Shown: in pieces, positions 1,740-39,145 of the stretch
Numbering within the stretch: the stretch's first letter is position 1
Layout: each line of letters begins with the position of its first letter
Assembly (NCBI GenBank): GCA_027718005.1
Contig: JALLOP010000001.1
Span: 1 to 39,504, forward strand
Length of the DNA stretch: 39,504 nt
Direction of reading: 5' to 3'
DNA from: Patescibacteria group bacterium AH-259-L07
GTDB taxonomy: Bacteria > Patescibacteriota > Patescibacteriia > UBA2591 > UBA6264
The notes under the pieces: model-generated
Seen by the model: the letters and a program-made list of their open reading frames with translations, nothing else
Database searches by the model: none
What the model was told of the DNA's origin: nothing
Program-made: the position numbers and the translations under genes

Positions 1740-2204
1740 TTGAAAAGTCCTGGTTTTGAAATAAGAGGTCCGACCTTTTCAAACCGAAATGCAAGGTCGG
1801 ACCTCGAAAGCCGGGCTTTGTTTAAGATAATTATTTCTGGCTCGCGGCCGCTCAACCCTGAAATAAATGAAGCTAAAAAAATAAAAATATTCTTAACAGA
1901 GCGAGGTATTCCTGAAAATAATATCGCATTAGAAGTTGTTTCGCGAACAACTAAAGAAAGCGCATACTATATTAAAGAAATGGTTGATAACAAGCCGTTC
2001 TTTTTAGTTACGTCTGCATATCATATGCCACGTTCAATGTATATATTTGAAAAAGTAGGAACTTCTCCTATTCCTGCGCCAACTGATTTTAAAGCAGAAT
2101 TTATTTATACCATCGTAGATATATTTCCGCATGCAGATAGCCTACGGAAAAGTGATATTGCATTTCATGAATATATTGGAATGATATATTACAAAATCTG
2201 GTAA
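1740..2204 (+). pseudogene. 5'-truncated DUF218 (YdcF/SanA/ElyC-like) gene remnant
   Basis: The C-terminal two thirds (IISGS...SEA-like...RGIPENNIALEVVSRTTKESA...FLVTSAYHMPRS) match DUF218. The N-terminal part of the ORF reads through the hairpin repeat and lacks the usual N-terminal region. Confidence 0.5.
1766..1805. repeat. Hairpin repeat GAGGTCCGACCTT-(loop ending AAATGC)-AAGGTCGGACCTC
   Basis: 13-bp perfect arms. A related copy lies at 4143-4210. Confidence 0.85.
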
Positions 2205-2235
2205 CCTGTAACGAGTAACCAGTAACGGGTAACGG
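2201..2235. repeat. Heptamer array, 5 x GTAACNN (35 nt), starting inside the stop codon of the DUF218 remnant
   Basis: GTAACCT GTAACGA GTAACCA GTAACGG GTAACGG read directly. Confidence 0.95.
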
Positions 2236-2242
2236 TAAGTTA

Positions 2243-2446
2243 TCAAATGAAATCAGAGAGCCTCTCGGACTTACCGCACGAAAAGACGCGGTCAATTTCC
2301 CCAGCGAGGAAATTGCCGCTAGGGCTCGGGCTCGCTCTCCACGACTAAATGTCGTGGAACCATGCCCGCTCGCCCTCCGCACTCTTTTCTTTGCGGCAAG
2401 TCCTGCGGGCTTTAGGAGTAAAGGTCTAGTCTCCGATTTCATTTGA
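2243..2446. ncRNA. Candidate structured RNA or large GC-rich element (about 204 nt), unknown class
   Basis: 12-bp closing helix (2243-2254 with 2435-2446). Second helix 2267-2278 with 2392-2403. Local hairpins at 2293-2315 and 2339-2357. GC content is far above the flanks. Confidence 0.3.
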
Positions 2447-2516
2447 AAGTCAACCCATAATTATTTAAAATATACAAAGCCGAGTCTTAGATTATAACAC
2501 CTGTGGATAAGTGAGG

Positions 2517-2545
2517 TTGACTTTTAGTAATAACCCTACTATTAT
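2517..2545 (+). promoter_or_regulatory. Sigma70-like promoter TTGACT-N17-TATTAT preceded by TGTGGATAA (DnaA-box consensus on the opposite strand, 2502-2510)
   Basis: Spacing counted directly. It points toward the ATPase gene at 2744. Confidence 0.4.
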
Positions 2546-2576
2546 TAAAAAGTATTTAATAATAACCCTACTATTA
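2528..2576. repeat. 17-nt perfect direct repeat TAATAACCCTACTATTA x2 (2528-2544 and 2560-2576)
   Basis: Read directly. The first copy overlaps the putative -10. Confidence 0.9.
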
Positions 2577-2743
2577 GAAAATAGTCCCTCGCTAACGCTC
2601 GGGGACTATGTTCTCCATAGGGCTTCCGCCCTCTGGCGCTCGCCCTGCGGGCTCGCTATCACCCCCACGGGGAAACTACGTTTCCCCGACCCCTTTCCTA
2701 TTGTATCGGAATAAAGACTTTCCGATACAATTAAAACTTTTGT

Positions 2744-4051
2744 ATGGAAAAAAAGCAATATTTAAACCGAAACCTATTTGCTTATATTAAAAAGTGGATA
2801 GATAGAAAAGAAATTTTAGCTATTAAAGGCCCGCGACAAGCAGGTAAAACTACTCTTTTAAAAATGCTTGAACAGTGGTTAACACAAGAAAAAAAAGTAA
2901 ATCCAGATAACATTATATTTATCACTTTTGAAGACGATGAGATGTTAGAACAATTTACTCTTGATGCACGGGAGACGGTAAAAAGTATAATTTCAGACAA
3001 AAAAGAAACATTTTATCTTTTAATAGATGAATTTCACTACCTGGAACAAGGCGGACACATTTTGAAACTATTATACGATACATTTGATAATATTAAATTT
3101 ATCATTACCGGATCATCATCGTTAGAACTTACGGGAAAAACGGCAAAATTTTTAGTGGGAAGAGTATTTTTTCTTGATCTATGGCAATTTGATTTTGGCG
3201 AGTTTTTACAAGTTAAATCTAAACAACTCAATAATGTATACCAAGAAAAATCTAAGCAAATAAAAGCATTTATTTACGATTCTAAGCCTTTCATTTCTCC
3301 CAAAAAAGATATTTTTACTAACAATTTTGAAAAACTATTTGAACAATACGCAATATGGGGAGGATATCCAGAAGTACTAAAAACCAATGATAAAGAAACA
3401 AAAAGAACAATACTTAAAAATATTTATAATACGTATATTAAAAAAGATATTATAGAACTTTTAAAAATATCCAATACTTCAACGTTTAAAAAACTAATTA
3501 ACTTATTAGCTCTTCGGACGGGCAATCTAATTAAATATGATTCACTTATTGATGATTCTGGCAGTTATTTTGAAGAAGTTAAACAGTATCTTTCTGTTCT
3601 AGAAGAAACCTTTATAATTTCACTTATAAAACCATTTTTTACTAATAAAACGACAGAGATAAGAAAATCGCCTAAAATCTATTTTATTGACTCGGGACTA
3701 CGAAACTATATTATTAATAATTTTAATATCCCTTCTTTAAGAACAGATATCGGCGCATTGGCGGAAAATATAGTTTTTTCTCAATTAAAAAAACAGAATG
3801 ATGAATTAGAACTAAAATACTGGAGAACAAAAGGAGACGCTGAAGTAGACTTTATTATAGAAAAACCAAAAGAATTAATTCCCATAGAAGTAAAATATTC
3901 TACTTTAAAATCTACACGTGTCTCAAGAAGCTTTAAAAATTTTATATCTCAATATAAACCTCAAAGAGGAATAATCCTAACTAAAGGATTTTGGGGAGAA
4001 ACAAAAGTTGCTACAACGCTTGTAAAATTTATTCCTATTTGGTATTTGTAA
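2744..4051 (+). CDS. AAA+ ATPase of the AAA_14 / DUF4143 type
   Basis: Walker A GPRQAGKTTLLK and Walker B LLIDEFHY. The C-terminal part (YWRTKGDAEVDFII...IPIEVKY) resembles the nuclease-fold DUF4143 region. Confidence 0.75.
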   Translation: MEKKQYLNRNLFAYIKKWIDRKEILAIKGPRQAGKTTLLKMLEQWLTQEKKVNPDNIIFITFEDDEMLEQFTLDARETVKSIISDKKETFYLLIDEFHYLEQGGHILKLLYDTFDNIKFIITGSSSLELTGKTAKFLVGRVFFLDLWQFDFGEFLQVKSKQLNNVYQEKSKQIKAFIYDSKPFISPKKDIFTNNFEKLFEQYAIWGGYPEVLKTNDKETKRTILKNIYNTYIKKDIIELLKISNTSTFKKLINLLALRTGNLIKYDSLIDDSGSYFEEVKQYLSVLEETFIISLIKPFFTNKTTEIRKSPKIYFIDSGLRNYIINNFNIPSLRTDIGALAENIVFSQLKKQNDELELKYWRTKGDAEVDFIIEKPKELIPIEVKYSTLKSTRVSRSFKNFISQYKPQRGIILTKGFWGETKVATTLVKFIPIWYL

Positions 4052-4105
4052 TAAAGCCTACGGATAAGCGGTATTGACTTTTCTAAGTATTTTACCAAAA
4101 ATAGT

Positions 4106-4257: not shown

Positions 4258-4349
4258 ACTGTTGCGAGGGCAAGGCTCGAAGCAATCCCAAATCAAAGAA
4301 TAGATTGCTTCGCTCCTTTCAGTCGCTCGCAATGACACTTCGTGTCATT
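4258..4349. repeat. GC-rich element, family 1 (CTGTTGCGAGG...GAAGCAATC...GATTGC...CGCTCGCAATGACAC-loop-GTGTCATT)
   Basis: Collinear with 6565-6650. Shares CGCTCCTTTCAGTCGCTCG with 35476-35494. Internal 9-bp and 8-bp hairpins. Confidence 0.85.
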
Positions 4350-4453: not shown

Positions 4454-4780
4454 TTAAATTATTCTTATTCCTGTCCTCTTAATTTCAGAAACTAAAGGAT
4501 CATCGCCAACAAAATCCTTTGGATGAAAACCAACAGGGGCAATCATATTTCTAGCATCATGGTCGGTTCTTCTAACCCATAAGTATTCCAGTGGGTCAAT
4601 TCTGCCTTTAAATTTAGGCGAAATAATACAAATATCAATATCGCTCCATTTGTGAGAACTGCCCTTAGTATGAGAGCCGAAAAGTATTACCTGTTTTATA
4701 GGTAATTTATCTTTTTTAAGTTCATCAATATAATCTTTGATCTTTTTTTCTATTTGTTTGTTAACTCTTTTTTTAGCCAT
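4454..4780 (-). CDS. Nucleotidyltransferase-domain protein (MNT-type, putative antitoxin partner of HEPN)
   Basis: LFGSHTKGSSHKWSDIDICII matches the GS-x-G...D-x-D polymerase-beta-type NTase motif. It overlaps the upstream HEPN gene by 31 nt. Confidence 0.8.
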   Translation of the reverse strand: MAKKRVNKQIEKKIKDYIDELKKDKLPIKQVILFGSHTKGSSHKWSDIDICIISPKFKGRIDPLEYLWVRRTDHDARNMIAPVGFHPKDFVGDDPLVSEIKRTGIRII

Positions 4781-5154
4781 AGAATTAAATCATGAGTAAT
4801 TTTTAAATATTCCTCAGCATATTTTTTTGTAACTTTTTTATAAAATGCATATCTGAGAGTATCATATCGTGCTCGCATATTAAAAGTAGTAATAATTTCC
4901 AAATACTTTTTTCTCTCAGCACTAACTTCAATGCCAGTTTTTAAAATCAAACTGTAAAGGTCGTGGGTGAAAGGTGCTTGATTCCCGGTTCTGGAAACAA
5001 CCAATGCCTTAATTAATCTTTCTAGGGTTAAATGGCAAAAAAATAAAGAATAGTTATAATGTTTTAAATCAAGAAGACTTTGAGCAACCTGCCAGTCCTT
5101 TTTAGCGTTATCTTGCCAATAATCAACAAATTTTTTAATCTTTGTTTTATCCAT
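4750..5154 (-). CDS. HEPN-domain protein
   Basis: AQSLLDLKHYNYSLFFCHLTLERLIKALV...PFTHDLYSL is a typical HEPN helix pattern. It is paired with the NTase gene. Confidence 0.7.
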   Translation of the reverse strand: MDKTKIKKFVDYWQDNAKKDWQVAQSLLDLKHYNYSLFFCHLTLERLIKALVVSRTGNQAPFTHDLYSLILKTGIEVSAERKKYLEIITTFNMRARYDTLRYAFYKKVTKKYAEEYLKITHDLILWLKKELTNK

Positions 5155-6180: not shown

Positions 6181-6963
6181 TTACTCTTCTAATACGACCT
6201 GGCGATATATGGTTCGCATACGCGAGTATTTTTTCTTGGCTGAAATCTCAATGGTATTTAAACCAGGCAATAACGCCACAACTTGTTTAAAACCCCCATA
6301 AGCATCAGCAGTGCCAATTAATTGATTATTTATAAAAACTTCTATATGAGGTTTTGTTGTGCCTTGTACGACAATGCTGGACTTTGAAGCTATAAATTCA
6401 TCTGGCGGATGTATGATCTCAATTAATGGCGGTGCTATCGCTGTTTTAATATTAACACCAATATATAATAAGATCAAGACAAGAATTACCAGTACTATAA
6501 TATTTTTAGAATAAACTAACTTTAAAGGGATGCGGGATGACAAGTGGGTGTGAGATTGCGGAGCCTGTTGCGAGGCCGTAGGCCGAAGCAATCTTAAAAC
6601 AGAGGAGAGATTGCCACGTCGCTCGCTCCTCTCGCTCCTCGCAATGACAAAAGAGGGTCGACGGCCTCCTCGCAATGACAAGGGGGGACGGGATGACAAA
6701 GGAGTGCTATATTCTTGTTCCCATTGATTTACAATACTTTGCGCATCTAATTCTAACGCCTCTGCATAGCGTTTGAGAATCCCGCGCGTATACGTTGCGC
6801 TGGGAAATTTATAAAAATCATCTGCTTCTAAATATTCTAAATATTTTTTAACAATGCTCGTGCTTTGTTCTACATCTTTAAGACTCAATCCCTTATCCTC
6901 ACGCGTTTGTTGTAACACATGCCCTAAGGTATCTGATCTCACTTGTTTTGAAGTAAAAGTCAT
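6181..6963 (-). CDS. RodZ-like helix-turn-helix membrane protein
   Basis: N-terminal HTH (LSLKDVEQSTSIVKKYLEYLE), one TM segment and a C-terminal beta-rich domain. The linker is encoded by a GC-rich repeat. Confidence 0.6.
   Translation of the reverse strand: MTFTSKQVRSDTLGHVLQQTREDKGLSLKDVEQSTSIVKKYLEYLEADDFYKFPSATYTRGILKRYAEALELDAQSIVNQWEQEYSTPLSSRPPLSLRGGRRPSFVIARSERSERRGNLSSVLRLLRPTASQQAPQSHTHLSSRIPLKLVYSKNIIVLVILVLILLYIGVNIKTAIAPPLIEIIHPPDEFIASKSSIVVQGTTKPHIEVFINNQLIGTADAYGGFKQVVALLPGLNTIEISAKKKYSRMRTIYRQVVLEE
6565..6690. repeat. GC-rich element, family 1, embedded in frame in the RodZ-like CDS
   Basis: CTGTTGCGAGGCCGTAGGCCGAAGCAATC...CTCGCAATGACAAGGGGGGACGGGATGACAAA is homologous to 4258-4349 and to the tail of 35466-35558. 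It is translated as ...RSERSERRGNLSSVLRLLRPTASQQ... Confidence 0.85.
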
Positions 6964-6974
6964 TTTTTTAAAAC

Positions 6975-7100
6975 CCTAAACTCTAAACCCTAAACTCTAA
7001 TCAAATCCAAAATCCTAAACTCAAAATTCAAAACGGTTTAGATATTCGAATTTTGATATTAGATATTGTTTAGGATTTCGAAATTAGAATTTAGGATTTC
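6975..7100. repeat. CTAAAC-type heptamer array (CCTAAAC TCTAAAC CCTAAAC TCTAATC...) facing an inverted, degenerate GTTTAG-type arm
   Basis: Read directly. It fills the ftsK-stop to RodZ-like-start spacer. Confidence 0.85.
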
Positions 7101-9278
7101 TCATCCTTCTTCTTCTGAAGAAGGCTGAGTGTATACTTCTCGTGGTTTTGATCCTTCAGCCGGCCCAATAGTTCCCTCTTCTTCTAATAAATCTAGGAGT
7201 CGCGCGGCCCTGGCATAGCCAATACGCAGTCGCCGCTGTAAATATGATGCCGATGCTTTCCCCGCGGCAACTACTGTCTCGCGCGCCTCATCTAAAAATT
7301 CATCTTTTTTTAAATCGCCAAAATGGGAATGTATATCATCTGGCTGTGATTCCGTAACTTCTTCTTCATACAAAGGTTTCGCAATATTTTTTAAATACTC
7401 AACTACTTTTTTAATCTCGATATCAGAAACATACGGGCCCTGCAAACGCCGTGGTTTTGAAATCTCAGGCGAGACAAATAGCATATCTCCCCGTCCTAAT
7501 AACCGTTCTGCACCAGCAAAATCTAAAATGGTTCGTGAATCAACTGCAGAAGCCACTGAAAACGCAACGCGCGTGGTAATATTTGCCTTAATTAATCCCG
7601 TAATAATGTCAACAGATGGACGCTGGGTTGCCATCACTAAATGGATTCCTGTTGCACGTGCCATCTGCGCTAAACGAATAATACAGGTTTCCACCTCATG
7701 TGGTGCGGTAACCATTAAATCCGCCAACTCATCTATAATAACAATAATATAAGGAAGTCTATTATTAGAAAACGCACTATTATACGTATCAATGTTTCGT
7801 TTTTTTGCATCGTGCATTATGTCAAACCGACGCTCCATTTCACCAATAGTCCATTTCAGGGCATTGATTGTCTTATCAACATCCGTAATAACTGGGGTTA
7901 ATAAATGCGGCAGTTCATCATATAACGTAAGCTCAACGCGTTTCGGATCAATTAAAATAAAACGCAAATCTTCAGGCGCATTTTGATAAATTAAACTTAC
8001 AATAACTGAATTTAAAAATATGGTTTTTCCTGATCCTGTACTACCTGCTACGAGCATATGCGGCATATTAGATAAATCTGCCAACCAAATTCTTCCTGCA
8101 ACATCACGGCCGAGTGATATAGTTAAATTTGATTTTCGTTTTTTAAATGTATCGCTCGCTAATATTTCTTTTAAGCGTATCACGGCAACGCGGACATTCG
8201 GTACTTCAATCCCTACCATAGATCGGCCAGGAATTGGCGCTTCGATGCGTATCGGATGTGCTGCTAATGCCATTGATAGATCGTTGTGCAGTGTGGTAAT
8301 TTTAGATAATTTTATCCCCTCTGCCGGTTTTAATGTATATTGTGTTACCGTAGGGCCTACCTTAATTTCCCCCATCTCTACGGGAATGTTAAAATTTTCT
8401 AATGTACGCTTAATAATTAATTTACTCGCCTTAATATCTCCTGCGCTTGGTTTTGAACTTGTACTATCTAATAAATGCAGCGGCATATCAGTTTTTTGAT
8501 ATGATGTTGCCGCCGTAATTGGAATTATTGGTTTTTGTTTTGATGGAGAGAATAAAGCTCCTTCATCTTCTGGTTTTTTTTCAAGTAATTTTGCTGTTTC
8601 TGGTTCTGTTTCACTTGTTAACTTTTGTTTTTTAAACACTATTTTTACTTTTTCAAAAATACGATGTATTAAACTTTGTTTTACTACTACCCGTTCTTCT
8701 TTTTTTGGTTTTTTCTTTATCATACCTGAAAGCGCAACAAGCAATCCAATAATAAAAGCGGCAGTAAATACAATCCAACTTGCCCAAAACCCAAACGTTT
8801 TCACCATCACATAACTAATACCATAACCAATATATCCACCGCCTTTAAATTCGTTTAATGCAGTTGGATTATTAATAAATGCGACATGAAGTGCTGAAGA
8901 TAGAATAACTGCTAAGAGTATGAGGCAAAAAAAACGAGTAATAAATGAAGGCGGCCGTTTTAGGCGAAGTATGCTTTGATCTTGGATCGTATCATACTTA
9001 ATACTAATAAACGCTAAAATTAAAAATATTACCGGAATAAACCAGCTCACCCAGCCAAATAATATTTGAAGTCCGAGTGCAAAAAACTCACCTGCGACAC
9101 CGGCAAGTCCAAAAAGACTTAACAATAAAATTACTGACAGGGCTATCAAAATAATGGATATAACTTGGCGCTGAAATTCACTCATTTTTTCAAATCCTTG
9201 CTTTTGCCGCCTTTTTCTATTCTTTTTTGTTTTACGTTTTTTTAAAAGCTTTGTTGATTTTTTTTGTCTTTTTTTCAT
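7101..9278 (-). CDS. ftsK: DNA translocase FtsK/SpoIIIE
   Basis: N-terminal TM segments, the motor (MLVAGSTGSGKT, IIVIIDELADL, ATQRPS) and a C-terminal gamma wHTH (ASASYLQRRLRIGYARAARL). Confidence 0.95.
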   Translation of the reverse strand: MKKRQKKSTKLLKKRKTKKNRKRRQKQGFEKMSEFQRQVISIILIALSVILLLSLFGLAGVAGEFFALGLQILFGWVSWFIPVIFLILAFISIKYDTIQDQSILRLKRPPSFITRFFCLILLAVILSSALHVAFINNPTALNEFKGGGYIGYGISYVMVKTFGFWASWIVFTAAFIIGLLVALSGMIKKKPKKEERVVVKQSLIHRIFEKVKIVFKKQKLTSETEPETAKLLEKKPEDEGALFSPSKQKPIIPITAATSYQKTDMPLHLLDSTSSKPSAGDIKASKLIIKRTLENFNIPVEMGEIKVGPTVTQYTLKPAEGIKLSKITTLHNDLSMALAAHPIRIEAPIPGRSMVGIEVPNVRVAVIRLKEILASDTFKKRKSNLTISLGRDVAGRIWLADLSNMPHMLVAGSTGSGKTIFLNSVIVSLIYQNAPEDLRFILIDPKRVELTLYDELPHLLTPVITDVDKTINALKWTIGEMERRFDIMHDAKKRNIDTYNSAFSNNRLPYIIVIIDELADLMVTAPHEVETCIIRLAQMARATGIHLVMATQRPSVDIITGLIKANITTRVAFSVASAVDSRTILDFAGAERLLGRGDMLFVSPEISKPRRLQGPYVSDIEIKKVVEYLKNIAKPLYEEEVTESQPDDIHSHFGDLKKDEFLDEARETVVAAGKASASYLQRRLRIGYARAARLLDLLEEEGTIGPAEGSKPREVYTQPSSEEEG

Positions 9279-9405: not shown

Positions 9406-9479
9406 ACAAATGTAAAAGTAAACTTTTCCATTTGATTCACCCTTAGGAATTATAGCATAAAATAAAAAAAATAAAAATA

Positions 9480-9496
9480 TCGAGGTTTTGCCTCGA
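9480..9496 (-). terminator. Terminator downstream of rpoC
   Basis: On the minus strand, TCGAGG-CAAAA-CCTCGA is followed by a T-rich tract. Confidence 0.6.
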
Positions 9497-9526
9497 CGAT
9501 CCCAATATTATTTAACAATTACAAAT

Positions 9527-9580
9527 ATTTTACATTTTGCATTGTCATTTTGCATTTTGATTTTTGATTTTTGAATTTGG
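9527..9580. repeat. ATTTTGC/ATTTTTG-type 6-7-nt array (about 8 units) spanning the rpoC stop codon
   Basis: ATTTTAC ATTTTGC ATTGTC ATTTTGC ATTTTG ATTTTTG ATTTTTG AATTTGG. It encodes the beta-prime tail ...NSKIKNQNAK. Confidence 0.85.
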
Positions 9581-12500
9581 AAGGCCGGTTCCCGCGGGGA
9601 TTAATTGTCCCACAATTACATTTTCTTTTAACCCGCGTAAATAATCAGGCCGCCCGCTAATTGCAGCATTAACTAACACACGAGATGTTTCTTGAAAACT
9701 CGCAGCAGAAAGCCAGCTGTCCGTAGAAAGAGAAACTCTCGTGATACCAGTTAACAATTCTTTCACTTTGGCAGGTCTCTTATCTATTTTTTTAGCTTTT
9801 TCATTTGCCTCAATAGCATATGACTTTGGCACAATTTCTCCTGGTAAAAGATCAGTATCGCCAGAATCCACTACTAATACGCGGGAAAATATTTGACGAA
9901 TAATGAGCTCAACATGTTTGTCATTTAATTTTTGTCCCTGAGATGAATAAATATATTGAATTTCCCGCAATATATATTTTTCTACCTCTTCTTTACCGCG
10001 CAATTCATAGAGTTCACGCAAATCCAAACTTCCATCAGTTAATTGCTGACCCTTCTCTACCTTATCTTTGTCTTTAACCCATATGGTATATCCGGCCACA
10101 TCATGCTCTTCATGTTTTTCCCCCTCATATGTTACCGTAACCACCGTATCTTTAATACTGACTTTTCCGCTGTGGCGTGCTTTAACTTTTTGTTTTCCAA
10201 TCGTTGCAATACTATCACCTTTTTTAACTTTTTGCCCTTGTTTAACTTTAAGTTTTGCTTTTTTGCCCGCAATGGTATACGTATCTTCTTGTGTGCTAGA
10301 ATAGGTAATCCTAATTCTTTTTTGATCATCTGATGAGATCATCTTAACAGGGCCCTTATGTCTAGCCATAATTGCTTTCCGCTTTACTGGCCTAACTTCA
10401 AACAGCTCTTCAACGCGCGGAAGCCCTTGCGTAATATCTCTCCCTGCAACACCACCGGTATGAAACGTTCTCAAAGTCAGCTGCGTTCCTGGCTCGCCAA
10501 TACTCTGCGCTGCAATAATACCAACTGGTGTACCAGGCGTAACCGGCTCATTATAACTTAAATCATAACCATAGCATCGCGCGCATATACCGCGCACTGA
10601 TTGACACGTTAATACCGATCGAATCCTTACCTCTTCAGGATCTGCATTTTGTATTTCCTCTGCCTTATCATATGATATAACATCATTTTTGCGAACAATA
10701 ACAGCCTTTGATTTTGGGTCATGGATTGCCTTTGCTGCTACCCTGCCAAATAAACGCGTTTGCCAATTTTCTCCCATTTTTGTATTGTCTTCACGCGTGA
10801 ACTTAAAACTCTTTGTACTCTTACAATCATTTTTAGTAATAATAATGTCCTGGCATACATCAACCATGCGCCGGGTTAAATATCCCGCACTCGCAGTACG
10901 AAGCGCGGTATCAGATACACCTTTTCGCGAACCATGGGTAGAAATAAAATATTCTAACACATTAAATCCTTCCTTAAATGAAGATTTAATAGGGAGCTCA
11001 ATTAATCTGCCGGTTGGCGAAGATACAATACCACGCATACCAAACATTTGGGTAAGCTGTGCCCATGAACCCCGTGCACCGGATTCAACCATAGAAAATA
11101 TGGGACTAAATTCAGGATCTCGTTTTCTTACCACCTCAGTAATTTTATCTTTTGTGCCAATCCACACTTCAATACTTTTTAAATATCGTTCATTCTCAGA
11201 CAATAATCCTGTCTCGTATTGATTTCTAACCTCATCAATACGCTTTTCTGCCTCGGCAAGGATCTCTTTTTTTTGCTCCAAGTCAGGCAAATCATCCATT
11301 CCCCACGAAAGTCCTGATCCTGTTAAGTACGTGAGTGTAGTTTGCTTAATTTGATCCAACAATTCAACTGCCTTATCTCTGCCATATTTTTGAATTGATT
11401 TAATTACAATTTGTTTTAACGTCCCTTTATCAACCACGGTATCCATAGTATAAATTCCTTTTGGCAGAATTGCATTAAATAACAGCCGTCCCACACTCAC
11501 TTGTCTGCGTTGAGATCCCTCGCTCGCTCGGGATGACACCTCCGGTGTCACTCTAACGTTAATTTTCTCTTGAAGCGTAATTTTCCCGGTTGAGTATGCC
11601 AACACTGCTTCATCAATACTACTAAAATTCGGATATTCTTTTTTTTTATCTTTTTTGTGAATATAGGTCATATAATACGCGCCCCAGATCATATCTTGCG
11701 TTGGGGTCACAATTGGCTCGCCCGTTGCCGGCTTTAACAAATTGTGTGTTGAGAGAATAATATTTTTTGCCTCATCACGTGCCTGACTCGTAATAGGAAC
11801 GTGTACCGCCATTTGATCTCCATCAAAATCAGCATTAAATGCTACACATACCAAGGGATGGATTTGAATCGCTTTTCCTTCAATTAATACTGGCTGGAAC
11901 GCTTGAATGCCTAATCGATGAAGTGTTGGCGCACGATTCAATAATACATAGGTATCTTTAATAATTTCTTCTAAAATAGCATATACCTCTTCAGTGCCTG
12001 TCTCAATTAAACGATTGGCGGACCTCACATTATGAACAATTTCTCGCTTAATTAATTCGGAAGCAATAAACGGCTTAAACAATTCCACTGCCATAAGCTT
12101 TGGCAGACCGCACTGACTTAACTTCAGGCGCGGTCCAACCACAATAACAGATCGGCCTGAATAATCTACGCGCTTCCCAAGTAAATTCTGTCGAAATCGC
12201 CCCTGCTTTCCTTTTAAAATATCAGCTAAGGATTTCAACGGCCTTCGCTGGCCAGTCGAGGCAATGGTTGTTTTCCCGCTTCGCATTTCATTATCAATTA
12301 ATGCATCAACTGCTTCTTGAAGCATTCTCTTTTCATTGCGTAAAATCACCTCTGGTGCATGCAAATCATACAATCGTTTTAAACGATTATTGCGATTGAT
12401 TACCCGTCGATACAAATCATTTAAATCTGAAGACGCAAACCTGCCGCCATCTAACGGCACTAATGGCCTTAGTTCTGGTGGAATCACCGGTACCGCACGG

Positions 12501-24893: not shown

Positions 24894-24926
24894 AGAAATT
24901 ACTTAGACATCATTACTTAGACTTAC

Positions 24927-25628
24927 TTAGACGTCGGAGGTCTTAGAGATTATAATTTCGCCAAATAATTTTTTTTGATTTACCTGTACTTTTTTTTGCT
25001 TCATTAATTCTAACACTGCTAAAAACATTACTGCCTGCTCAACGCGCTCCTTGCCTTTAAGCAGGGGATTAAATATAACTTTTTTATGTTTTTTGAGCAA
25101 AATAAGCAATTCATTAACTTTTTCTCGCAAAGAAATCACTTTTCTCTTTATACTTTTTTGTGAAAGCTTAATCTGCTCTAAAATAGTTGATACAACACTT
25201 TTAAAGCTTTTTTCTAAATGGGCAGTGTCCACGTGTACATCAAATGAGATATTGTTAGCTGCAGACATTGATATTTTTTCTTTGACAAATGAATATGATG
25301 GTCCATTTACTAACTGCGAAACTTTTTTTGATACCTGCGCAAATTCACGATACAGTTTTAGCTGATCAAGTAAATCATCAGTTTCTTCTTCATCAAATAT
25401 GGCCTCAGGAATTAAGAGCCGCGATTTAATCAAAATCAGCCTTGCAGCGACTTCTAAAAAATCAGCAAGTTCTTGCGCACTTACATGCTCCAGAGTATGT
25501 AGATATTTGAGAAATTCATCAGCAACCTCGGATAATGAAACTTCAGTAATATCTAATTTTTCTTTCTCAATGAGTTTGAGCAATACATCAAATGGTCCGC
25601 TAAATTGTTTTAATGCAACCTTGTACAT
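24927..25628 (-). CDS. scpA: Segregation and condensation protein A (kleisin)
   Basis: FSGPFDVLLKLIEKEKLDITEVSLSEVADEF is the typical ScpA N-terminus. It lies directly upstream of scpB. Confidence 0.9.
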   Translation of the reverse strand: MYKVALKQFSGPFDVLLKLIEKEKLDITEVSLSEVADEFLKYLHTLEHVSAQELADFLEVAARLILIKSRLLIPEAIFDEEETDDLLDQLKLYREFAQVSKKVSQLVNGPSYSFVKEKISMSAANNISFDVHVDTAHLEKSFKSVVSTILEQIKLSQKSIKRKVISLREKVNELLILLKKHKKVIFNPLLKGKERVEQAVMFLAVLELMKQKKVQVNQKKLFGEIIISKTSDV

Positions 25629-25631: not shown

Positions 25632-25667
25632 GTTTAGAGTTTAGGATATTAGGGTTTAGAGTTTACT
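25632..25667. repeat. GTTTAG-type heptamer array (5 units) spanning the alaS stop codon
   Basis: GTTTAGA GTTTAGG ATATTAGG GTTTAGA GTTTACT. This is the reverse complement of the CTAAAC units at 6975-7002. Confidence 0.9.
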
Positions 25668-31210: not shown

Positions 31211-31942
31211 TCAATCCTTAAGAGAAGGTCCTTCATACTCAATATCTTTTGTATCTAAACGGCGGTAGGGTTTTTCATCAACCATTTCTTCATAAAGATG
31301 AGCCGCAAGTCCTGGCAGACGGCCAAGGATAAAGAAAAACTTTCCTATTCTCCAGTCAAAACCAAGTTCAGAAATAATAGCCGCGATTGCTCCATCAATA
31401 TTTATGACTAGCTTCTTTCCTGTTTGACGCTTTAATTCCTCCTGCAGCGCGTATGCACGAGCTATATATTTGCCATAACAACCAAGCTCTTTTGCACGCT
31501 TAAAAATTATTGTTGTCCGTGGATCTTCAACTTCATATAGTTTATGTCCATAACCAGGCAATTTCTCTTTCTTCTCTAATACATAGGAAACGATCGCTTC
31601 CGGCGTTTTATTGGACTGTAAATTGCGCGCCGTCCCTTCAATCGCGCCTCCATGCCATGATCCCATAGTTAAGATGCCTGCGGATAGCGCGGTGTTGAAA
31701 GAATTTCCTGTCGAGGCAACGGTCCGTGTGACAAACGTTGACGGCGCCTCAATTCCATGTTCAATAGATGCAACAAGAATAGTATTAAGTATTTCTTCTT
31801 CGTACTTCTCTGGAAAAGCACCTCTAAGCATTAAAAAAACTGCTTCAGAAAAAGAGTATTTCCCAATAAGATCGAGCAATTTATGCCCGCGAATGTAGAG
31901 TGTACCGTCTTTATGTACACTTATTTTTGTGCGCCATTTCAT
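31211..31942 (-). CDS. Citrate-synthase-fold small protein, citryl-CoA lyase-like
   Basis: 243 aa with SWHGGAIEG and GYGHKLYEVEDPR, which are counterparts of the citrate synthase HGGA and GFGHRVY..DPR motifs. Confidence 0.7.
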   Translation of the reverse strand: MKWRTKISVHKDGTLYIRGHKLLDLIGKYSFSEAVFLMLRGAFPEKYEEEILNTILVASIEHGIEAPSTFVTRTVASTGNSFNTALSAGILTMGSWHGGAIEGTARNLQSNKTPEAIVSYVLEKKEKLPGYGHKLYEVEDPRTTIIFKRAKELGCYGKYIARAYALQEELKRQTGKKLVINIDGAIAAIISELGFDWRIGKFFFILGRLPGLAAHLYEEMVDEKPYRRLDTKDIEYEGPSLKD

Positions 31943-31951
31943 AATTATTCG

Positions 31952-32845
31952 TTAAAGGAATTGTTTTACCAACGACGGAATCTCTTCTAATGTATTGGCA
32001 ATGGGTATCCCAGCGCGTCGTAATGCTCTTACTTTTGACATATAGCTTCCTTTCTTCCTATAAACAATAGCACCAGCGTGTCCTAAGACCGTACCTTCTG
32101 GTAGGTCCATAGTAAATTTTCCTGCAACAATGACGACAATTGGTTTGGTACATTTTTTTTGCTTAACACATTCTGCAATCCGTTCCTCATAGGTTCCGCC
32201 CACTTCACCAAAACACACGACAACTTTTGTACCTTTATCAAGCTCGAACAACTCAAGCATATCAACAAAGTCAGACCCGACAATTTGATCACCGCCGATC
32301 CCGATAACTGTACTCTGCCCAATACCTGCATTGCTTAAAATCACTGAGATTTCAGCAGTCATCCCGCCGCTCTTTGAAATAACTCCTACCGAACCAGGGT
32401 GGAAGATATGACGAACTTTACCACTTCCAATACTTCCGATCTTTGCCCTACCAGGAGAAATGATTCCTACTGAAGCAGGCCCAACTATTTGGCAATTCTG
32501 CTTTCGTGCCCACGCTATAACCTTCGCGCTGTCCTGTACAGGCACATGCTCAGCAAGGATGTTTATAAGAGGGATGTTTGCAAACATTGCTTCCATCGAT
32601 GCATCTTTTACCGCAAGTGCAGGAACCGTAATAAGAGAAGCATTAATCTGGGGATGATAATGCGCCGCTTTCTCAACGGTATCATATACTGGCACTCCAT
32701 CGACGCGTTGCCCGCCTTTCCCCGGTGTCACGCCTGCACAAACGTTGGTACCATACATACGCATTTCTCTTGAGGCGCGTGAGCCTTCACTTCCGGTAAT
32801 GCCTTGAATAAGCACGTTAGTTTTTTTATCGATCAAAATTGCCAT
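31952..32845 (-). CDS. Succinyl-CoA synthetase alpha-like subunit (CoA-binding, phosphohistidine loop)
   Basis: VLIQGITGSEGS, ISKSGGMTAE, GHAGAIV. Confidence 0.85.
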   Translation of the reverse strand: MAILIDKKTNVLIQGITGSEGSRASREMRMYGTNVCAGVTPGKGGQRVDGVPVYDTVEKAAHYHPQINASLITVPALAVKDASMEAMFANIPLINILAEHVPVQDSAKVIAWARKQNCQIVGPASVGIISPGRAKIGSIGSGKVRHIFHPGSVGVISKSGGMTAEISVILSNAGIGQSTVIGIGGDQIVGSDFVDMLELFELDKGTKVVVCFGEVGGTYEERIAECVKQKKCTKPIVVIVAGKFTMDLPEGTVLGHAGAIVYRKKGSYMSKVRALRRAGIPIANTLEEIPSLVKQFL

Positions 32846-32868
32846 ATCAATCCAAGATAAAGTTTCCC

Positions 32869-33936
32869 TTATTTATACGCAAGATCTACCATAATCTTTG
32901 CGGTTTCTGCCATTGAGATCTCGGATCCAAAAATATGAAATTGATATCCTTGTTCTTTCGCAACTTGCCTAAGCATCGCAACCGCCTGTTCTTGTCGAGG
33001 GCCATCCCTCCTAATTACAATAGGGTACGTTGGTTTTGGTCTGACATACCCGAGCCCATTCACAAATCCGCGCATTGTCTCATAAATATCAGTAAAATTT
33101 GCAGTTCCACCAACAACCCAACATCCCTTAAGTCCTTTTCTCCTCAGTACCTGTTTTGTTAAGTCCTCTACAATATGTGCCGGGGGATTGCCTGAATATT
33201 CAGTATAATTTGCAGGACGCCCGCCATGGAAAATAAGGGCGTCGATGTTTAAAAGAGAGGCACCACCACCAGATGCCAAAATTGCAATATCACCACCGAG
33301 TTCAATAAAACGACGTTTGCCAGGCGCTACTTTTTCATCATCAAGGATAATCTTCGCGTCACCAGCAACAAATGCTCCGCCTTTCGTTTTAAAAAGCGGG
33401 TTAATCTCTGCCAGGATTGCATACTCAGAAATAAAAAGTTTCCATAGATTTTTTACTATCCCCGCAACTTTTAAGATGTCAGAAGAAGGAAATTTTGCCT
33501 GAGATAAAGCGCGTCGAAATAAAAACAAACAAGAATCAAACGTAAAATCAAGAGGAACTACTTTTGCCCTGCTGATGCCTGTCCCTCCTTGCGCAGATAC
33601 TGCGATCACCGGAGAACGTGTGCTTGTATCATAGCTGAAGGAAACATAGTATTCAGAAATTGCAGCAATCCGTTCCTCTACCAATACTTTTCTAATATTC
33701 TCGTTGTGTACCTTCATATTACATAGTTTTTGTATCTTCTTTCGTGCAGAAAAAAGGGTAGATGCTGGTAAAATTCCTCCTGCCTCTTTCCTTCCGCCAA
33801 AAAGGGTCTGTGCCTTAAGCACATATGGCGGCTTGAAAGTGATTTTGCCACGAGGAGAATTCAGTACAACCCGACGTGGAGTGGGAATGCCATATTTCTC
33901 AAACAAATTTTTACCTTCGTACTCGTAAAGTCTCAT
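32869..33936 (-). CDS. Succinyl-CoA synthetase beta-like subunit (ATP-grasp)
   Basis: MRLYEYEGKNLFEKYGIPTP, EINPL, ILASGGGASLLNIDAL..HGG.PANY. Confidence 0.8.
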   Translation of the reverse strand: MRLYEYEGKNLFEKYGIPTPRRVVLNSPRGKITFKPPYVLKAQTLFGGRKEAGGILPASTLFSARKKIQKLCNMKVHNENIRKVLVEERIAAISEYYVSFSYDTSTRSPVIAVSAQGGTGISRAKVVPLDFTFDSCLFLFRRALSQAKFPSSDILKVAGIVKNLWKLFISEYAILAEINPLFKTKGGAFVAGDAKIILDDEKVAPGKRRFIELGGDIAILASGGGASLLNIDALIFHGGRPANYTEYSGNPPAHIVEDLTKQVLRRKGLKGCWVVGGTANFTDIYETMRGFVNGLGYVRPKPTYPIVIRRDGPRQEQAVAMLRQVAKEQGYQFHIFGSEISMAETAKIMVDLAYK

Positions 33937-35465: not shown

Positions 35466-35558
35466 TGAGATCCCTCGCTCCTTTCAGTCGCTCGGGATGA
35501 CATTCTTCTTTGCCATTCCGCACGAAGTGCGGAATGACAAGGGGGAACGGAATGACAA
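35466..35558. repeat. GC-rich element, family 1, in the secY-adk spacer
   Basis: GAGATCCCTCGCTCCTTTCAGTCGCTCGGGATGACA, the hairpin CATTCCGCAC-GAA-GTGCGGAATG, and the tail GGAATGACAAGGGGGAACGGAATGACAAA. Confidence 0.85.
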
Positions 35559-35560
35559 AA

Positions 35561-35595
35561 ATCTTAAATCATAAATCTAAAATCATAAATCTATT
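35561..35595. repeat. Heptamer array, 5 units (ATCTTAA ATCATAA ATCTAAA ATCATAA ATCTATT), abutting the secY stop codon
   Basis: Read directly. Confidence 0.9.
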
Positions 35596-36871
35596 AGACT
35601 CCTTCATATTCATGCATAGCAATTTGCGCCTGGATTTGCTTTACTGACTCCAATACCACGCTCACCACAATTAATATAGCCGCACCACCAACCACAAATG
35701 TGGTTACGCGAAACACATTTTGCGTAACAATGGGGAGAATTGCAATAATCCCTAATGAAAGGGCTCCTGCGAGCATTATTCTATTACTTACCTTTTTTAA
35801 AAATCCCGCAGTCGGCTGACCTGGCCGAATCCCTGGTACAAACCCACCCTGCTTTTGTAAATTATCAGCAATTTGCGTGGGGTGGAAAATAATGCTGGTA
35901 TAAAAGTACGTAAATGCAACCACAAGCGTAAAATAAAGAAGCCCGTAGATCAGCTGATTTTGATTGATCTGCAATAATATATTACCAAACCCAGCAACAA
36001 ATGATGAACCTGACCGCACCATTAACTGCCCGATTAATCCGGGAAATAATACAATAGAAATCGCAAAAATAATTGGTATCATCCCTGCTTGATTGACGCG
36101 AAGCGGTAAATAGGTATCCGTGCCGCCATACATGCGATTGCCTCGAATACGGCGTGCATACGTTACGGGAATATTACGCTGTCCTTCCGTGATTATGACC
36201 ACACCGGCAATCGTAATTAATGCAAGCCCTGCTAATATTAACCAATTCATAGCTTGTGCTTTTGAAAACGTAACAATAGACTGCTGAAGAGCAATAGGAA
36301 TGCCTTCTACAATACCAGCAAAAATAATTAAGGAAATGCCATTGCCGATTCGTTTTTCTGTAATCAGCTCTCCAATCCACATTAAAAATATCGTTCCCGC
36401 GCTCATTACCATAAGAATGTTGATAAGTTTAAAGGTAGACAAATCTCCAATAATTGGCTGAGCAGATTGGCGGAATAGCATAATTAACCCATATGATTGA
36501 AGCAGTGCCAAGGGCACGGTTAATATGCGAGAATACTGATTAATTTTTGCCTGTCCAGATGAGCCTTCTTTACTTAATTCTTCTAATCGGGGAACCACCA
36601 TGGTTAACAGCTGCATAATAATAGAAGCAGTAATATAGGGAGCAACGCCCATAGCAACAATGGAAAAATTTTTCATCGCACCCCCTGATAAAATATTTAA
36701 CATGCCCAGCAATTCATTTTGAGCAAAAAAATCTTTCAAGTTTGCTATATTCGCACCAGGAACAGGAATGTGCGCCGCAACTCTAAAAACTATCAGCATA
36801 CCCATTACAAAAAGCAGGCTATTGCGTAAATCTTTAATTTGAATAATTTGTCGTATTTTTTCAAACATCAT
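35594..36871 (-). CDS. secY: Preprotein translocase subunit SecY
   Basis: 10-TM pattern, GVAPYITASIIMQLL, GELITE.GIGNG.SLII. The ATG ATG at 36871 is preferred; the longer ORF reads through GC-rich hairpins. Confidence 0.95.
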   Translation of the reverse strand: MMFEKIRQIIQIKDLRNSLLFVMGMLIVFRVAAHIPVPGANIANLKDFFAQNELLGMLNILSGGAMKNFSIVAMGVAPYITASIIMQLLTMVVPRLEELSKEGSSGQAKINQYSRILTVPLALLQSYGLIMLFRQSAQPIIGDLSTFKLINILMVMSAGTIFLMWIGELITEKRIGNGISLIIFAGIVEGIPIALQQSIVTFSKAQAMNWLILAGLALITIAGVVIITEGQRNIPVTYARRIRGNRMYGGTDTYLPLRVNQAGMIPIIFAISIVLFPGLIGQLMVRSGSSFVAGFGNILLQINQNQLIYGLLYFTLVVAFTYFYTSIIFHPTQIADNLQKQGGFVPGIRPGQPTAGFLKKVSNRIMLAGALSLGIIAILPIVTQNVFRVTTFVVGGAAILIVVSVVLESVKQIQAQIAMHEYEGV

Positions 36872-37496: not shown

Positions 37497-37499
37497 ATA

Positions 37500-37979
37500 C
37501 TATACTTTTTTAAATGACTCAAGCGCCTTGAGTGTTGCTCTCACATTATTAATTTTATTTTTTGATCCCAACATTTTAGCAGTAATATTTTTAATACCTA
37601 CTAAGGATAGCACTGTTCGCGCGGCACCACCAGCCACAATACCATGCCCCTTGCGCGCCGGGCGAAGCAGAACACGTGCCGCACCATATTTTGCTATAAC
37701 TTTATGAGGAATGGTATCATTTACCATGTGCACCTTTACTATTTTTTTATTTGCTTTTCGCACTGCCTTTTCAATAGCAATTTGCACATCTGCCCCCTTT
37801 GCTACACCAGTGCCAACCTTTCCTTTCCGATCTCCAATAACAATACAAGCGCGAAAGCTCAAACGCTTCCCACCCTTCATTACCCGTGTTACCCGCGCAA
37901 GATCGACGAGCTGTTGTTCAAACTCGGGCTTTGTTTTTACCTCCCTCATTTGTCTTTTTCTTACTCTTCTTTTTGCCAT
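37500..37979 (-). CDS. rpsE: 30S ribosomal protein S5
   Basis: RVTRVMKGGKRLSFRACIVIGD..GKVG.G.GKA, GGAARTVLSLVGI. Confidence 0.95.
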   Translation of the reverse strand: MAKRRVRKRQMREVKTKPEFEQQLVDLARVTRVMKGGKRLSFRACIVIGDRKGKVGTGVAKGADVQIAIEKAVRKANKKIVKVHMVNDTIPHKVIAKYGAARVLLRPARKGHGIVAGGAARTVLSLVGIKNITAKMLGSKNKINNVRATLKALESFKKV

Positions 37980-38025
37980 AATTTATAGACGCGGATACAG
38001 CTGATCCGCATTTATCCGCGCTTGT

Positions 38026-38385
38026 TTAAAATCGCAAACCGCCTTCCCTGGCTCCATCGGCTACGGCTTTAACCCTGCCATGGTATTTATACCCTCCGCG
38101 GTCAAATACCACACTGGTAATCTTTTTCTTTTTTGCTCTCTCTGCTAAAAGTTTACCTGTCTCATATGAAACTTGTGTTTTTGTTAATTTCTTGTTTTTA
38201 GAACTTACTCCTGCTGTATTTGCGCTAACTAATGTATGCCCGTCATCATCATCTATGAGCTGGGCGTATATATACTTATATGATCTAAAAACACATAGTC
38301 GAGGGCGCTTTTTAGTCCCATAAATCTTAGCTCTTACGCGCCGGTGGCGCCTCATGCGCTTTAATTGTTTTTGGTCAGTAGACAT
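38026..38385 (-). CDS. rplR: 50S ribosomal protein L18
   Basis: [55 protein letters not shown] at 38385. Confidence 0.9.
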
Positions 38386-38457
38386 GCAATTCAATTTAAC
38401 ATTTAGTACTTTTAACAACTAAACAAAATTTAAAAATATGGCTATCATTACAATCTT

Positions 38458-38489
38458 TTGTTAAATTGTTAAGTTGTTATCCTGTTATT
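38458..38489. repeat. Octamer array TTGTTAAA TTGTTAAG TTGTTATC CTGTTATT downstream of the rplF stop
   Basis: Read directly, period 8. Confidence 0.8.
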
Positions 38490-38494
38490 TTGAT

Positions 38495-39046
38495 TTATTT
38501 TGCCGTTGCTTTTGCTTTCTTCCCCGCCTTTCTTCGAATAATCTCATCACTATATTTGATTCCCTTGCCCTTATATGGTTCGGGCTTTCTTAATCTTCTG
38601 ATTTGCGCTGCGGTCTCGCCGACCAACTGCTTATCAATCCCCTTTATTATCACAATATTATTTGATTCAATTGTTACCTCAATACCTTGAGGAATTTTAA
38701 ATTCGATCGGATTTGAAAATCCGATGTTTAATACCAAAATTTTGTCTTTAACGCTTGCACGGAATCCTACGCCAACTAACTCTAATCGTTTTTCATACCC
38801 CTCTAGTACGCCATCAATCATATTAGAAATGAGTCGTGCATACGTCCCCCAGAGTGAGCGCTGCCCTTTATTTTCTGAATCTTTCACGCGCACGACGAGC
38901 TGATTTTCTTTTTTCTCAACTGCTACAACACGGGGAAAATTCTGAGTTAATTCACCTTTTGGCCCCTTTATAACGATTGTGTTATCTTTAATGGCTGCTT
39001 CAACGCCTTCAGGAATTGTAATAGGCTGTTTTCCAATTCTACTCAT
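38495..39046 (-). CDS. rplF: 50S ribosomal protein L6
   Basis: MSRIGKQPI.IP.GV...I....I.IKGPKGEL, and the KPEPYKGKGI.Y C-terminus. Confidence 0.95.
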   Translation of the reverse strand: MSRIGKQPITIPEGVEAAIKDNTIVIKGPKGELTQNFPRVVAVEKKENQLVVRVKDSENKGQRSLWGTYARLISNMIDGVLEGYEKRLELVGVGFRASVKDKILVLNIGFSNPIEFKIPQGIEVTIESNNIVIIKGIDKQLVGETAAQIRRLRKPEPYKGKGIKYSDEIIRRKAGKKAKATAK

Positions 39047-39063
39047 ACAAAAGCTTCGCTTTT

Positions 39064-39145
39064 AGTAACTAGTAACTAGTAACTCGTAACTGGTAATTTT
39101 ATTTTAATTTTCTTTTTATTACTGGTTACTGATTACTGGTTACTT
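39064..39145. repeat. Inverted pair of GTAAC-type heptamer arrays (5 units at 39064-39098; 4 inverted units at 39118-39145) around an AT-rich 19-nt spacer
   Basis: AGTAACT x3 CGTAACT GGTAATT ... ATTACTG GTTACTG ATTACTG GTTACTT. Lies between the rpsH stop and the rplF start. Confidence 0.9.

Follow-up and report, generated by a model that had tools for sequence, protein, structure and literature searches.

Heptanucleotide arrays at gene ends have been recorded in cyanobacteria since 1990. The short tandemly repeated repetitive (STRR) heptanucleotides of heterocystous cyanobacteria and the so-called long simple-sequence repeats (SSRs) comprise several heptamer families per genome in scattered lineages; their origin is ascribed to polymerase slippage, and they have no known function. 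Here, we analyzed arrays of seven-nucleotide (7-nt) units in a gene-dense stretch of DNA from Patescibacteria (candidate phyla radiation), namely positions 1 to 39,504 of contig JALLOP010000001.1 of Patescibacteria group bacterium AH-259-L07 (GCA_027718005.1); this whole stretch of 39,504 nt is called the window. As quoted in two later papers (PMC4692102, PMC4679880), the survey of Mrazek (2007) found heptanucleotides to be the commonest long SSR in most of the genomes surveyed, and slippage was proposed. The GGGAATC heptamers of Xanthomonas and the GGGGA(C/T)T heptamers of Nostoc prefer ~4 units and lie between open reading frames (ORFs) that are aligned, with the G-rich strand being the sense strand where the repeat overlaps a stop codon or lies within 0-50 bp of one, and the antisense strand just upstream of a start codon (Rehm et al. 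2015, PMC4692102). In that study, 70-75 inverted pairs were able to form stem-loops, sister species shared intergenic sites that differed in length and sequence, and no function was found. Similarly, TAACTGA repeats are present in 2-6 copies just upstream of start codons in marine Beggiatoaceae, some Cyanobacteria, and Bacteroidetes; they lie inside operons, those for ribosomal proteins among them, and their stops in three frames were argued to restrict their location (MacGregor 2015, PMC4679880). In the papers searched, no heptamer repeats were reported for Patescibacteria or the candidate phyla radiation.

The arrays of the window are most likely slippage-driven, selfish or near-neutral DNA that has been filtered by selection. 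At a probability of roughly 0.55, we favor the reading that they are heptanucleotide SSRs of the STRR or long-SSR class in a recent bloom, generated by slippage and placed by selection. Arrays were detected by Tandem Repeats Finder and a separate period scan, and chance expectation was taken from 30 dinucleotide-preserving shuffles. A sequence-only reading of the window had listed, besides murE, six loci with arrays of about five units at or across stop codons, and both methods confirmed period-7 arrays at all six. At a score of at least 12, the window contained eight period-7 arrays against 0 in the 30 shuffles, and at a score of at least 10, nine against 0.27. Period 7 was the sole strongly enriched tandem period; periods 8-13 showed a weaker excess, periods 14 and 21 were echoes of period 7, and the period scan returned zero arrays with periods 3-6. 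Head-to-tail 7-nt units thus extend beyond chance length, as they do in heptanucleotide long SSRs and STRR-type repeats. The earlier suggestion that these are not neutral microsatellites stands as far as the shuffles go, in that the arrays are not chance and the family is tied to gene boundaries and linked to the lineage. Further arrays beyond that list were found at 7003-7033, 7038-7067, 7069-7099, and 39119-39144, together with three in-frame arrays in murE.

Almost every gene of the window is encoded by the minus strand. Read in descending coordinates, the window holds rpsH, rplF, rplR, rpsE, rplO, secY, adk, map, ATP-citrate-lyase-like genes, ruvX, a mraY/wecA-like gene, a TraD-like ATPase gene, alaS, scpA, scpB, tRNA-Arg, a ~6-kb variable segment, murE, rpoB, rpoC, ftsK, a RodZ-like gene, and recA. 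Among public genomes, the single-cell assembly AH-259-L05 (loci L001 and L093; hereafter the sister) comes closest; it is syntenic with the window at ~85-96% nucleotide identity, or about 92% as a single figure.

Placement at stop codons was right for four of the six listed loci (ElyC/DUF218, rpoC, alaS, and secY). On the plus strand, the first unit of a GTAACNN x5 array (2201-2235) supplies the TAA stop (2202-2204) of an ElyC/DUF218 fragment, and this array forms the leading part of a ~300-nt insertion (2198-2499) missing in the sister. The other three are on the minus strand. A CAAAAAT/CAAAATG array (sense; 9527-9582) contains the rpoC stop (9545-9547), codes for the last ~12 residues of RpoC, and extends 18 nt past the stop. 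The alaS stop (25656-25658) is contained in a CCTAAAC/TCTAAAC array (sense; 25632-25667; GTTTAGA x4.7 on the forward strand at 25632-25665), which occupies the entire 27-nt spacer as far as the start of scpA (25628). A TAGATTT/ATGATTT x5 array (sense; AAATCAT/AAATCTA forward; 35559-35593) with stop triplets in all three frames immediately follows the secY stop (35594-35596). RNA around the single arrays at rpoC, alaS, secY, and ElyC is predicted to be unstructured (z from -1.1 to +0.9; +0.5 for the rpoC array).

For ftsK and rpsH, the proposed placement was wrong. The AAACCCT/AAACTCT x4.3 array at 6971-7000 (minus strand), which had been listed as 6975-7002 just after the ftsK stop, adjoins the start of the RodZ-like gene (6963) at a distance of 7 nt and is 100 nt from the ftsK stop. 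Together with the array at 7003-7033, it makes up the start-side arm (6971-7033, minus strand; complement of CTAAAC-type units) of a hairpin whose stop-side arm (7038-7099, minus strand) ends 1 nt from the ftsK stop (7101-7103) and consists of two arrays, in the sense direction TTCTAAA-type at 7069-7099 and TATCTAA-type at 7038-7067. Similarly, the array described as following the rpsH stop (39064-39098) lies 51 nt past that stop and 16 nt ahead of the rplF start (39046); it is the start-side arm of a second hairpin (39063-39096, minus strand; GTTACTA x4.9 in sense, TAGTAAC forward), and the stop-side arm of AGTAACC x3.7 (sense; 39119-39144, minus strand) is located 3 nt after the rpsH stop (39148-39150). 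The ftsK-rodZ (137 nt) and rpsH-rplF (101 nt) spacers therefore consist almost wholly of two inverted sets of heptamer arrays. On the minus strand, the predicted RNA folds reach -45.9 kcal/mol (z -5.7) for 6958-7106 and -24.4 kcal/mol (z -5.1) for 39040-39155. In this way, many inverted pairs turn a whole intra-operon spacer into one ~100-nt hairpin.

Recurrence of the same unit type at unlinked loci, also proposed earlier, is real and only moderately significant, because ~0.8 such pairs are expected by chance among the 78 pairs compared. The 2201 array matches the 39119 array at 22 of 25 positions, and the 6971 array matches the 25632 array at 16 of 18, the latter two having the 14-nt double unit CCTAAACTCTAAAC in common; both matches exceed the 99th percentile of a synthetic-array null. 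Counted as dispersed copies of a REP/REPIN/MITE-like palindrome would be, each unit type is found at 2-3 loci of the window.

Comparison with the sister showed how quickly the arrays change. The sister has no array at six window loci: the ElyC stop, ftsK-rodZ, alaS-scpA, the secY stop, rpsH-rplF, and rplF-rplR. Its spacers measure 26 nt at ftsK-rodZ (137 nt in the window), ~3 nt at alaS-scpA (27 nt), 9 nt at rpsH-rplF (101 nt), and 27 nt at rplF-rplR (76 nt), where the period-8 array of the window is also missing; around the scpA stop and the scpB-scpA spacer it is shorter by ~40 nt. The secY-stop array is missing both in the sister and in locus L094. At the rpoC stop, the sister carries an array at the same point with a different unit (ATTTTAG type). 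The 3-27-nt spacers of the sister are the ancestral ones. Because most arrays are either missing in the sister or replaced there by an array of another unit, the arrays are best described, judging from these alignments, as recent and fast-turning-over and not as conserved signals or terminators; they turn over within ~8% sequence divergence. A conserved lineage-specific signal, as the sequence-only reading had suggested, is not what a ~92% identical relative shows when it lacks six arrays and carries other units at the rpoC stop and in murE. That reading had named absence from close relatives as the first half of what would speak against it, and the comparison comes near to this, with most arrays missing. 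Other genome pairs at ~90% identity showed a mix of conserved arrays, one-sided arrays, and different units per site. Thus, L034 and L044 share conserved orthologous arrays, as do L056 and L061, and the secY stop carries different units at one site in L034 and L044. Furthermore, L034:4494 and L044:9333 differ by a TAA/TGA difference common to several units of one array, indicating concerted evolution. No evidence supporting a conserved function of the arrays was seen.

Arrays are also present in frame inside murE (minus strand). A perfect (GCTACAA)x5 array at 17522-17556 is translated as LQATSYKLQATN, and a perfect (TTCATCA)x5.3 array at 17760-17796 as SSFIIHHSSFII. The third, (GAATTAA)x5 at 17844-17881, is 12 nt longer than the corresponding segment of the sister, and GAC and TAC replace TAA in exactly those two units, the only ones, where it would otherwise fall in the reading frame, indicating that the murE frame was kept under selection after the array had formed. 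At the 17522-17556 site, the sister has a degenerate period-7 stretch of equal length, and the 17760-17796 array is likewise as long as its counterpart. Apart from the one 12-nt difference, the arrays of the window therefore sit on degenerate period-7 sequence of equal length in the sister, which looks like the re-homogenization of old arrays and not like insertion. The two upstream murE arrays, 17760-17796 and 17844-17881, may or may not pair as a hairpin: they are 76% complementary, a level that about one-quarter of random AT-rich heptamer pairs was estimated to reach, and folding of the RNA gave no improvement over shuffles (z +0.8). Taken with the concerted differences between L034 and L044, arrays form and re-homogenize locally in 7-nt steps.

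The analysis was extended to a set of 92 loci (~1.13 Mb) of related Patescibacteria around rpoC and secY. Arrays with a score of at least 12 numbered 111 for period 7, 41 for period 8, 18 for period 9, 8 for period 6, and 1 for period 5; over-representation of period 7 relative to other unit lengths is thus common to the window and these loci. Array lengths clustered in a hump between 23 and 39 nt (~3.3-5.5 units), and few arrays exceeded 40 nt. Under simple ORF calls, 9 of 119 arrays fell within coding sequence (92.5 expected), 43 touched a stop codon (5.4 expected), and 16 touched a start codon (5.7 expected). The majority (93/119) lay in co-directional spacers, at 1.05 per kb compared with ~0.5 in convergent or divergent spacers, which is the non-coding, co-oriented bias of the known class. 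Inside co-directional spacers, the relative position of arrays was bimodal, at both edges, and stop-only and start-only arrays were similar in number (38 vs 31 and 37 vs 35 at tolerances of 12-16 nt). Consistent placement at gene 3' ends was therefore not seen in this ~1.1 Mb of related DNA; the arrays sit tightly against the stop upstream as well as the start downstream, because many of them are the two arms of one hairpin element. Of the period-8 arrays of these loci, 11 adjoined starts and only 4 adjoined stops.

Array density was all-or-none. Among the 53 loci of at least 10 kb, 32 had no arrays against 10 expected under a Poisson distribution, and eight had 2-7 heptamer arrays per 10 kb; the window strain is array-rich and the sister array-poor. 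Some genomes carry dispersed whole copies in many of their spacers. As observed in L053:3567-9510, the spacers of one ribosomal-protein operon hold at least six near-identical ~100-nt hairpin elements, each built of four TAGCNNT units, a central ATAATTAT stem-loop, and four complementary units, with the order of variant units being constant. Additional partial and variant copies were also found in L053. A covariation test on this element was uninformative, the copies being too alike.

An inverted partner within 150 nt was found for 44 of the 119 arrays (37%), compared with 3 of 119 random controls. The pairs had a median span of 96 nt and a median loop of 33 nt, and were set back from the stop by a median of 5 nt and from the following start by 9 nt, so that the layout reads stop, arm, loop, arm, start. 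The two arms differ in polarity. With the window and duplicate loci left out, sense stops in all three frames were present in 28 of 35 stop-side arrays and in 5 of 29 start-side arrays (Fisher p = 8e-7). The strand polarity and inverted pairs of the Xanthomonas/Nostoc class (Rehm et al. 2015) are thus both found here. A polarity of purine or G skew, as in Xanthomonas, was rejected as the basis: G>C separated the sides weakly (26/37 stop-side vs 11/30 start-side), and in the same comparison three-frame stops separated them strongly (30/37 vs 6/30). Seeding of arrays by duplication of the heptamer containing the stop codon was likewise rejected as a general origin. The gene stop was in register with the stop triplets of the array in 12 of 38 cases (p = 0.008), only where the array overlaps the stop, and arrays starting after the stop were at chance.

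As a transcript 3'-end signal in the form of an intrinsic terminator, the arrays were not borne out. No terminator-like site coincides with any window array, and four of the six listed loci sit between closely spaced co-directional genes. The one good hairpin with a T-run (9479-9497, minus strand) lies ~30 nt downstream of the rpoC array, and the likely transcript end at rpoC is this terminator-like hairpin and not the array. Similarly, phase-variation (contingency) repeats were rejected. Contigs that are 99.6% identical (L049/L050) carry identical arrays, and the arrays are not contingency loci because the genes are housekeeping genes with the arrays at their 3' ends. In a search of the window against Rfam, tRNA-Arg alone reached the gathering threshold, and no family was matched for the arrays.

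The window arrays share the class-defining features of the known heptamer repeats (unit length, over-representation, non-coding bias, polarity, and pairing) and depart from them in sequence-specific features only. Like those of Xanthomonas and Nostoc, they have a 7-nt unit, a size of ~4 units, a non-coding and co-oriented bias, polarity, pairing, and sites shared with other sequence. In contrast, the units here are AT-rich and cannot form G-quadruplexes, a property used there to explain the preference for four units; nearly all units lack G-runs, the sole exception being TAGGGAT at L084:7154. Furthermore, many unrelated units are present per genome instead of one, the stop-side strand is marked by three-frame stops and not by G-richness, and arrays also lie in frame inside an essential gene. 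The resemblance to TAACTGA extends to tandem heptamers in intergenic positions within operons, a few nucleotides from starts, with three-frame stops in one orientation, and the GTAAC-type units TAACTAG and TAACCAG of the window are the nearest to TAACTGA in sequence. However, TAACTGA is the one dominant unit there, whereas many units occur here, and it lies mostly upstream of starts with one inverted pair reported, whereas stop-side arrays and inverted pairs are common here. With STRR and long-SSR repeats, the arrays have in common several heptamer families, the dominance of period 7, and scattered lineages; hairpin pairs and the stop/start geometry are outside the STRR definition.

For the favored reading, the generator would be slipped-strand replication or unit-to-unit conversion favoring 7-nt steps, and inverted partners and dispersed copies would probably arise from strand switching or copy-and-paste. 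Of the three options offered by the sequence-only reading (a transcript 3'-end or processing signal, a protein-binding site, and the target of an insertion or repair process), the last, understood as a mutational process, is the best supported. Selection would then set where arrays survive. They would be lost from coding sequence because 7 cannot be divided by three and the majority of AT-rich units hold TAA, TAG, or TGA; a tandem 7-mer with one stop triplet would shut all three frames within 21 nt. Exceptions would be an array in the last few codons, which merely supplies a new stop; compact operons, whose spacers are so short that any insert would touch stop and start alike; and stop-free units in tolerant protein loops with a net length change of 0 or 3n. 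A hairpin would rejoin the stop to the next start, and paired inserts would probably be the least harmful for translationally coupled genes.

Several points weigh against this reading. The 7-nt step size is without explanation, the polymerase-footprint idea in the literature being conjecture, and a mismatch-repair or slippage mutator should expand 1-4-nt repeats too, of which none was seen. A ~100-nt paired element facing a 9-nt spacer in the sister resembles a ready-made insertion and not gradual slippage. Edge placement persists in long spacers, so that a tiny ancestral spacer would call for later insertions into the loop. The identical arrays of L049 and L050 indicate that arrays are not hypermutable on short timescales. 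In addition, gene boundaries in the 92 loci came from a naive ORF caller, and starts may be off by a few codons.

One alternative is a small, mobile palindromic element, non-autonomous and inserting between genes, whose arms would be the arrays and whose transposase would be encoded elsewhere, with single arrays being decayed or half elements. REP/REPIN, Correia, and similar families are palindromic intergenic elements of fixed sequence with defined ends that are recognized by a transposase. Like these, the present elements are ~100-nt hairpins between operon genes near stops, with dispersed copies in L053, and like Rickettsia palindromic elements, some inserts are tolerated in frame in essential genes (the murE arrays and GC-rich inserts in rpoC). 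Mobility would fit the L053 elements, at least six near-identical ~100-nt copies keeping one order of variant units in separate ribosomal-protein spacers, as well as the inserts of ~100-137 nt found only in the window where the sister has 9-26 nt, the related units at unlinked loci, the bloom-like density among genomes, and the 37% of arrays with an inverted partner. However, the arms are tandem 7-mers of many sequences: at least 6-7 unrelated units in the window (GTAAC, CTAAAC, CAAAAAT, TAGATTT, GCTACAA, TTCATCA, and GAATTAA) are a misfit for one end-recognizing transposase, and the build of copies varies among a single arm, a pair, and a double pair. No fixed termini or target duplication could be defined at filled and empty sites; no clear target-site duplication was seen, the junctions being too diverged, and a CCTGT repeat at the 2198-2499 insertion was unconvincing. 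No transposase is encoded within the window, nor is a reverse transcriptase or a repair polymerase. Finally, native sequence has been replaced length for length by the murE arrays, which flank a conserved native segment, unlike an insertion. We therefore regard a mobile element as possible and rather unlikely, at about one chance in several.

A role as functional RNA within operons is doubtful. On this explanation, the paired hairpin would link the termination of one cistron with the initiation of its successor, or serve as an RNase III or stability site, and the single, unstructured form would be a platform for a protein of the cold-shock or S1 type that binds single-stranded RNA and tunes translation. 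The geometry is suggestive, with the hairpin base close to both codons (median distances of 5 nt for the stop and 9 nt for the start), strong predicted folds (z about -5), approximately twofold density in co-directional spacers (1.05 vs ~0.5 per kb), a consistent stop-side and start-side polarity, and single arrays predicted to be unstructured; the same proposal was made for TAACTGA repeats (PMC4679880). Nevertheless, the arrays are not conserved, and the sister manages with 3-27-nt spacers at the same junctions. The unit sequences are too varied for one binding protein, 32 of the 53 related loci have zero arrays, the L053 copies are too similar to reveal covariation, and Rehm et al. saw no regulatory role for the Xanthomonas repeats (PMC4692102).

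It is improbable that a dedicated enzyme, present in array-rich lineages only, writes the 7-nt steps, either by telomerase-like copying with a reverse transcriptase or primase-polymerase or by repair gap filling. Such an enzyme would account for the strict 7-nt step without short-unit repeats, the uniform size of ~4-5 units, the burst in the window lineage relative to the sister with all-or-none occurrence among genomes, and the equal-length overwriting of murE segments. However, there is no candidate in or near the window, the same pattern is found in unrelated phyla (PMC4692102, PMC4679880), arrays of periods 8 to 11 occupy the same positions, and slow concerted evolution fits the degenerate murE arrays of the sister equally well. 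Assembly or amplification artefacts, for which one could point to the metagenome and single-cell origin of the sources and to an exact look-up of the window's MurE protein, which gave no record in the protein collection, are highly improbable, since arrays occur in independent assemblies of many projects and pipelines, are shorter than a sequencing read, keep the murE frame with stop-avoiding substitutions, and are conserved as orthologues (L034/L044, L056/L061).

We also consider, as a speculation that we think unlikely to hold as a whole, a specific process writing in 7-nt steps and switched by lineage, which would have bloomed in the window strain but not in its ~92% identical sister. Under it, the paired design of a stop-rich arm, a loop, and a complementary arm would be selected or tolerated because the hairpin keeps translational coupling. 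If this were true, the same geometry in G-rich (Xanthomonas, Nostoc) and AT-rich arrays would point to one mechanism independent of phylum, and the G-quadruplex explanation of the 4-5-unit size would fall away.

Repeats with other periods were also found at stops on both strands of the window. A period-8 array (TTGTTAAA x2.8; 38458-38479, minus strand) lies close to the rplF stop (38495), in the spacer between rplF and rplR, copies of the decamer TTACTTAGAC (24899-24932, minus strand) run across the scpA stop (24927-24929) and the scpB-scpA spacer, and TTAGCGGAAAT x3 with period 11 (1480-1512, plus strand) spans the stop (1492-1494) of ORF 133-1494.

GC-rich repeats form a separate set of observations. 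Within rpoC, the window has a 30-nt GC-rich hairpin repeat, CCCTCGCTCGCTCGGGATGACACCTCCGGTGTCA, as an in-frame insert at 11517-11550 that is missing in the sister, and at a distance of ~150 nt another in-frame insert, of 90 nt and with two AAGAACC...CAGAACCTTG units, is present in the sister (L001 reverse-complement ~12115-12203) and missing in the window; both resemble the in-frame palindromic elements of Rickettsia. The GC-rich motif GTCGCTCGGGATGACA occurs in spacers and genes at 4322-4337, 11523-11538, and 35487-35502 (3 matches against 0.07 expected), and in alaS of the sister a 25-nt unit containing GTCGCTCGGGATGACA is present in ~13 tandem copies (L001 ~2536-2892; reverse-complement 21036-21392). 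Inside the 300-nt insertion missing in the sister, a ~200-nt GC-rich insert (2243-2446) is bounded by 17-nt inverted repeats (TCAAATGAAATCAGAGA / TCTCCGATTTCATTTGA). Its counterparts are L014:7882-8073 and L015:10211-10354, and it has a clear homologue in a ribosomal-protein spacer of another Patescibacteria genome. An Rfam search of 2150-2750 gave no relevant match, and the insert may be an unclassified structured RNA or small mobile element.

Among the genes, a ~5.9-kb segment (18489-24369) is missing in the sister. It contains a phosphoenolpyruvate-synthase-like gene split in two ORFs, an aspartyl-protease-like ORF, and a 589-amino-acid ORF without a family match, together with two similar ~200-nt stretches (about 18700-18895 and 22010-22212). 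At 31211-33936, adjacent genes for a citryl-CoA lyase, a CoA-ligase alpha-like protein, and an ATP-grasp protein with a citrate-binding domain resemble parts of ATP-citrate lyase or citryl-CoA synthetase/lyase, which is unusual for a reduced genome. Overlapping nucleotidyltransferase (MNT) and HEPN genes at 4454-5154 are a typical toxin-antitoxin pair, and upstream of them are a Schlafen/AlbA_2-HTH gene (133-1494) and an AAA_14/DUF4143 ATPase gene (2744-4051).

For genome annotation, the arrays have practical consequences. They create or shift stops, as in the tails of rpoC, alaS, and ElyC, sit in frame in murE, and inflate operon spacers; they are unsuited to annotation as terminators or conserved regulatory sites. 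Since they differ between near-identical strains, they may serve as strain markers. More generally, a repeat class that is old and unexplained is now extended to Patescibacteria, whose tiny spacers make every insert visible. New to the class are an AT-rich geometry without quadruplexes, a stop-side arm defined by three-frame stops, a bloom within ~8% divergence, and in-frame entry into essential genes. That AT-rich arrays repeat the size, pairing, and polarity of G-rich ones argues against the quadruplex explanation, and the shared geometry argues for a general cause, namely a 7-nt step together with a reading-frame filter.

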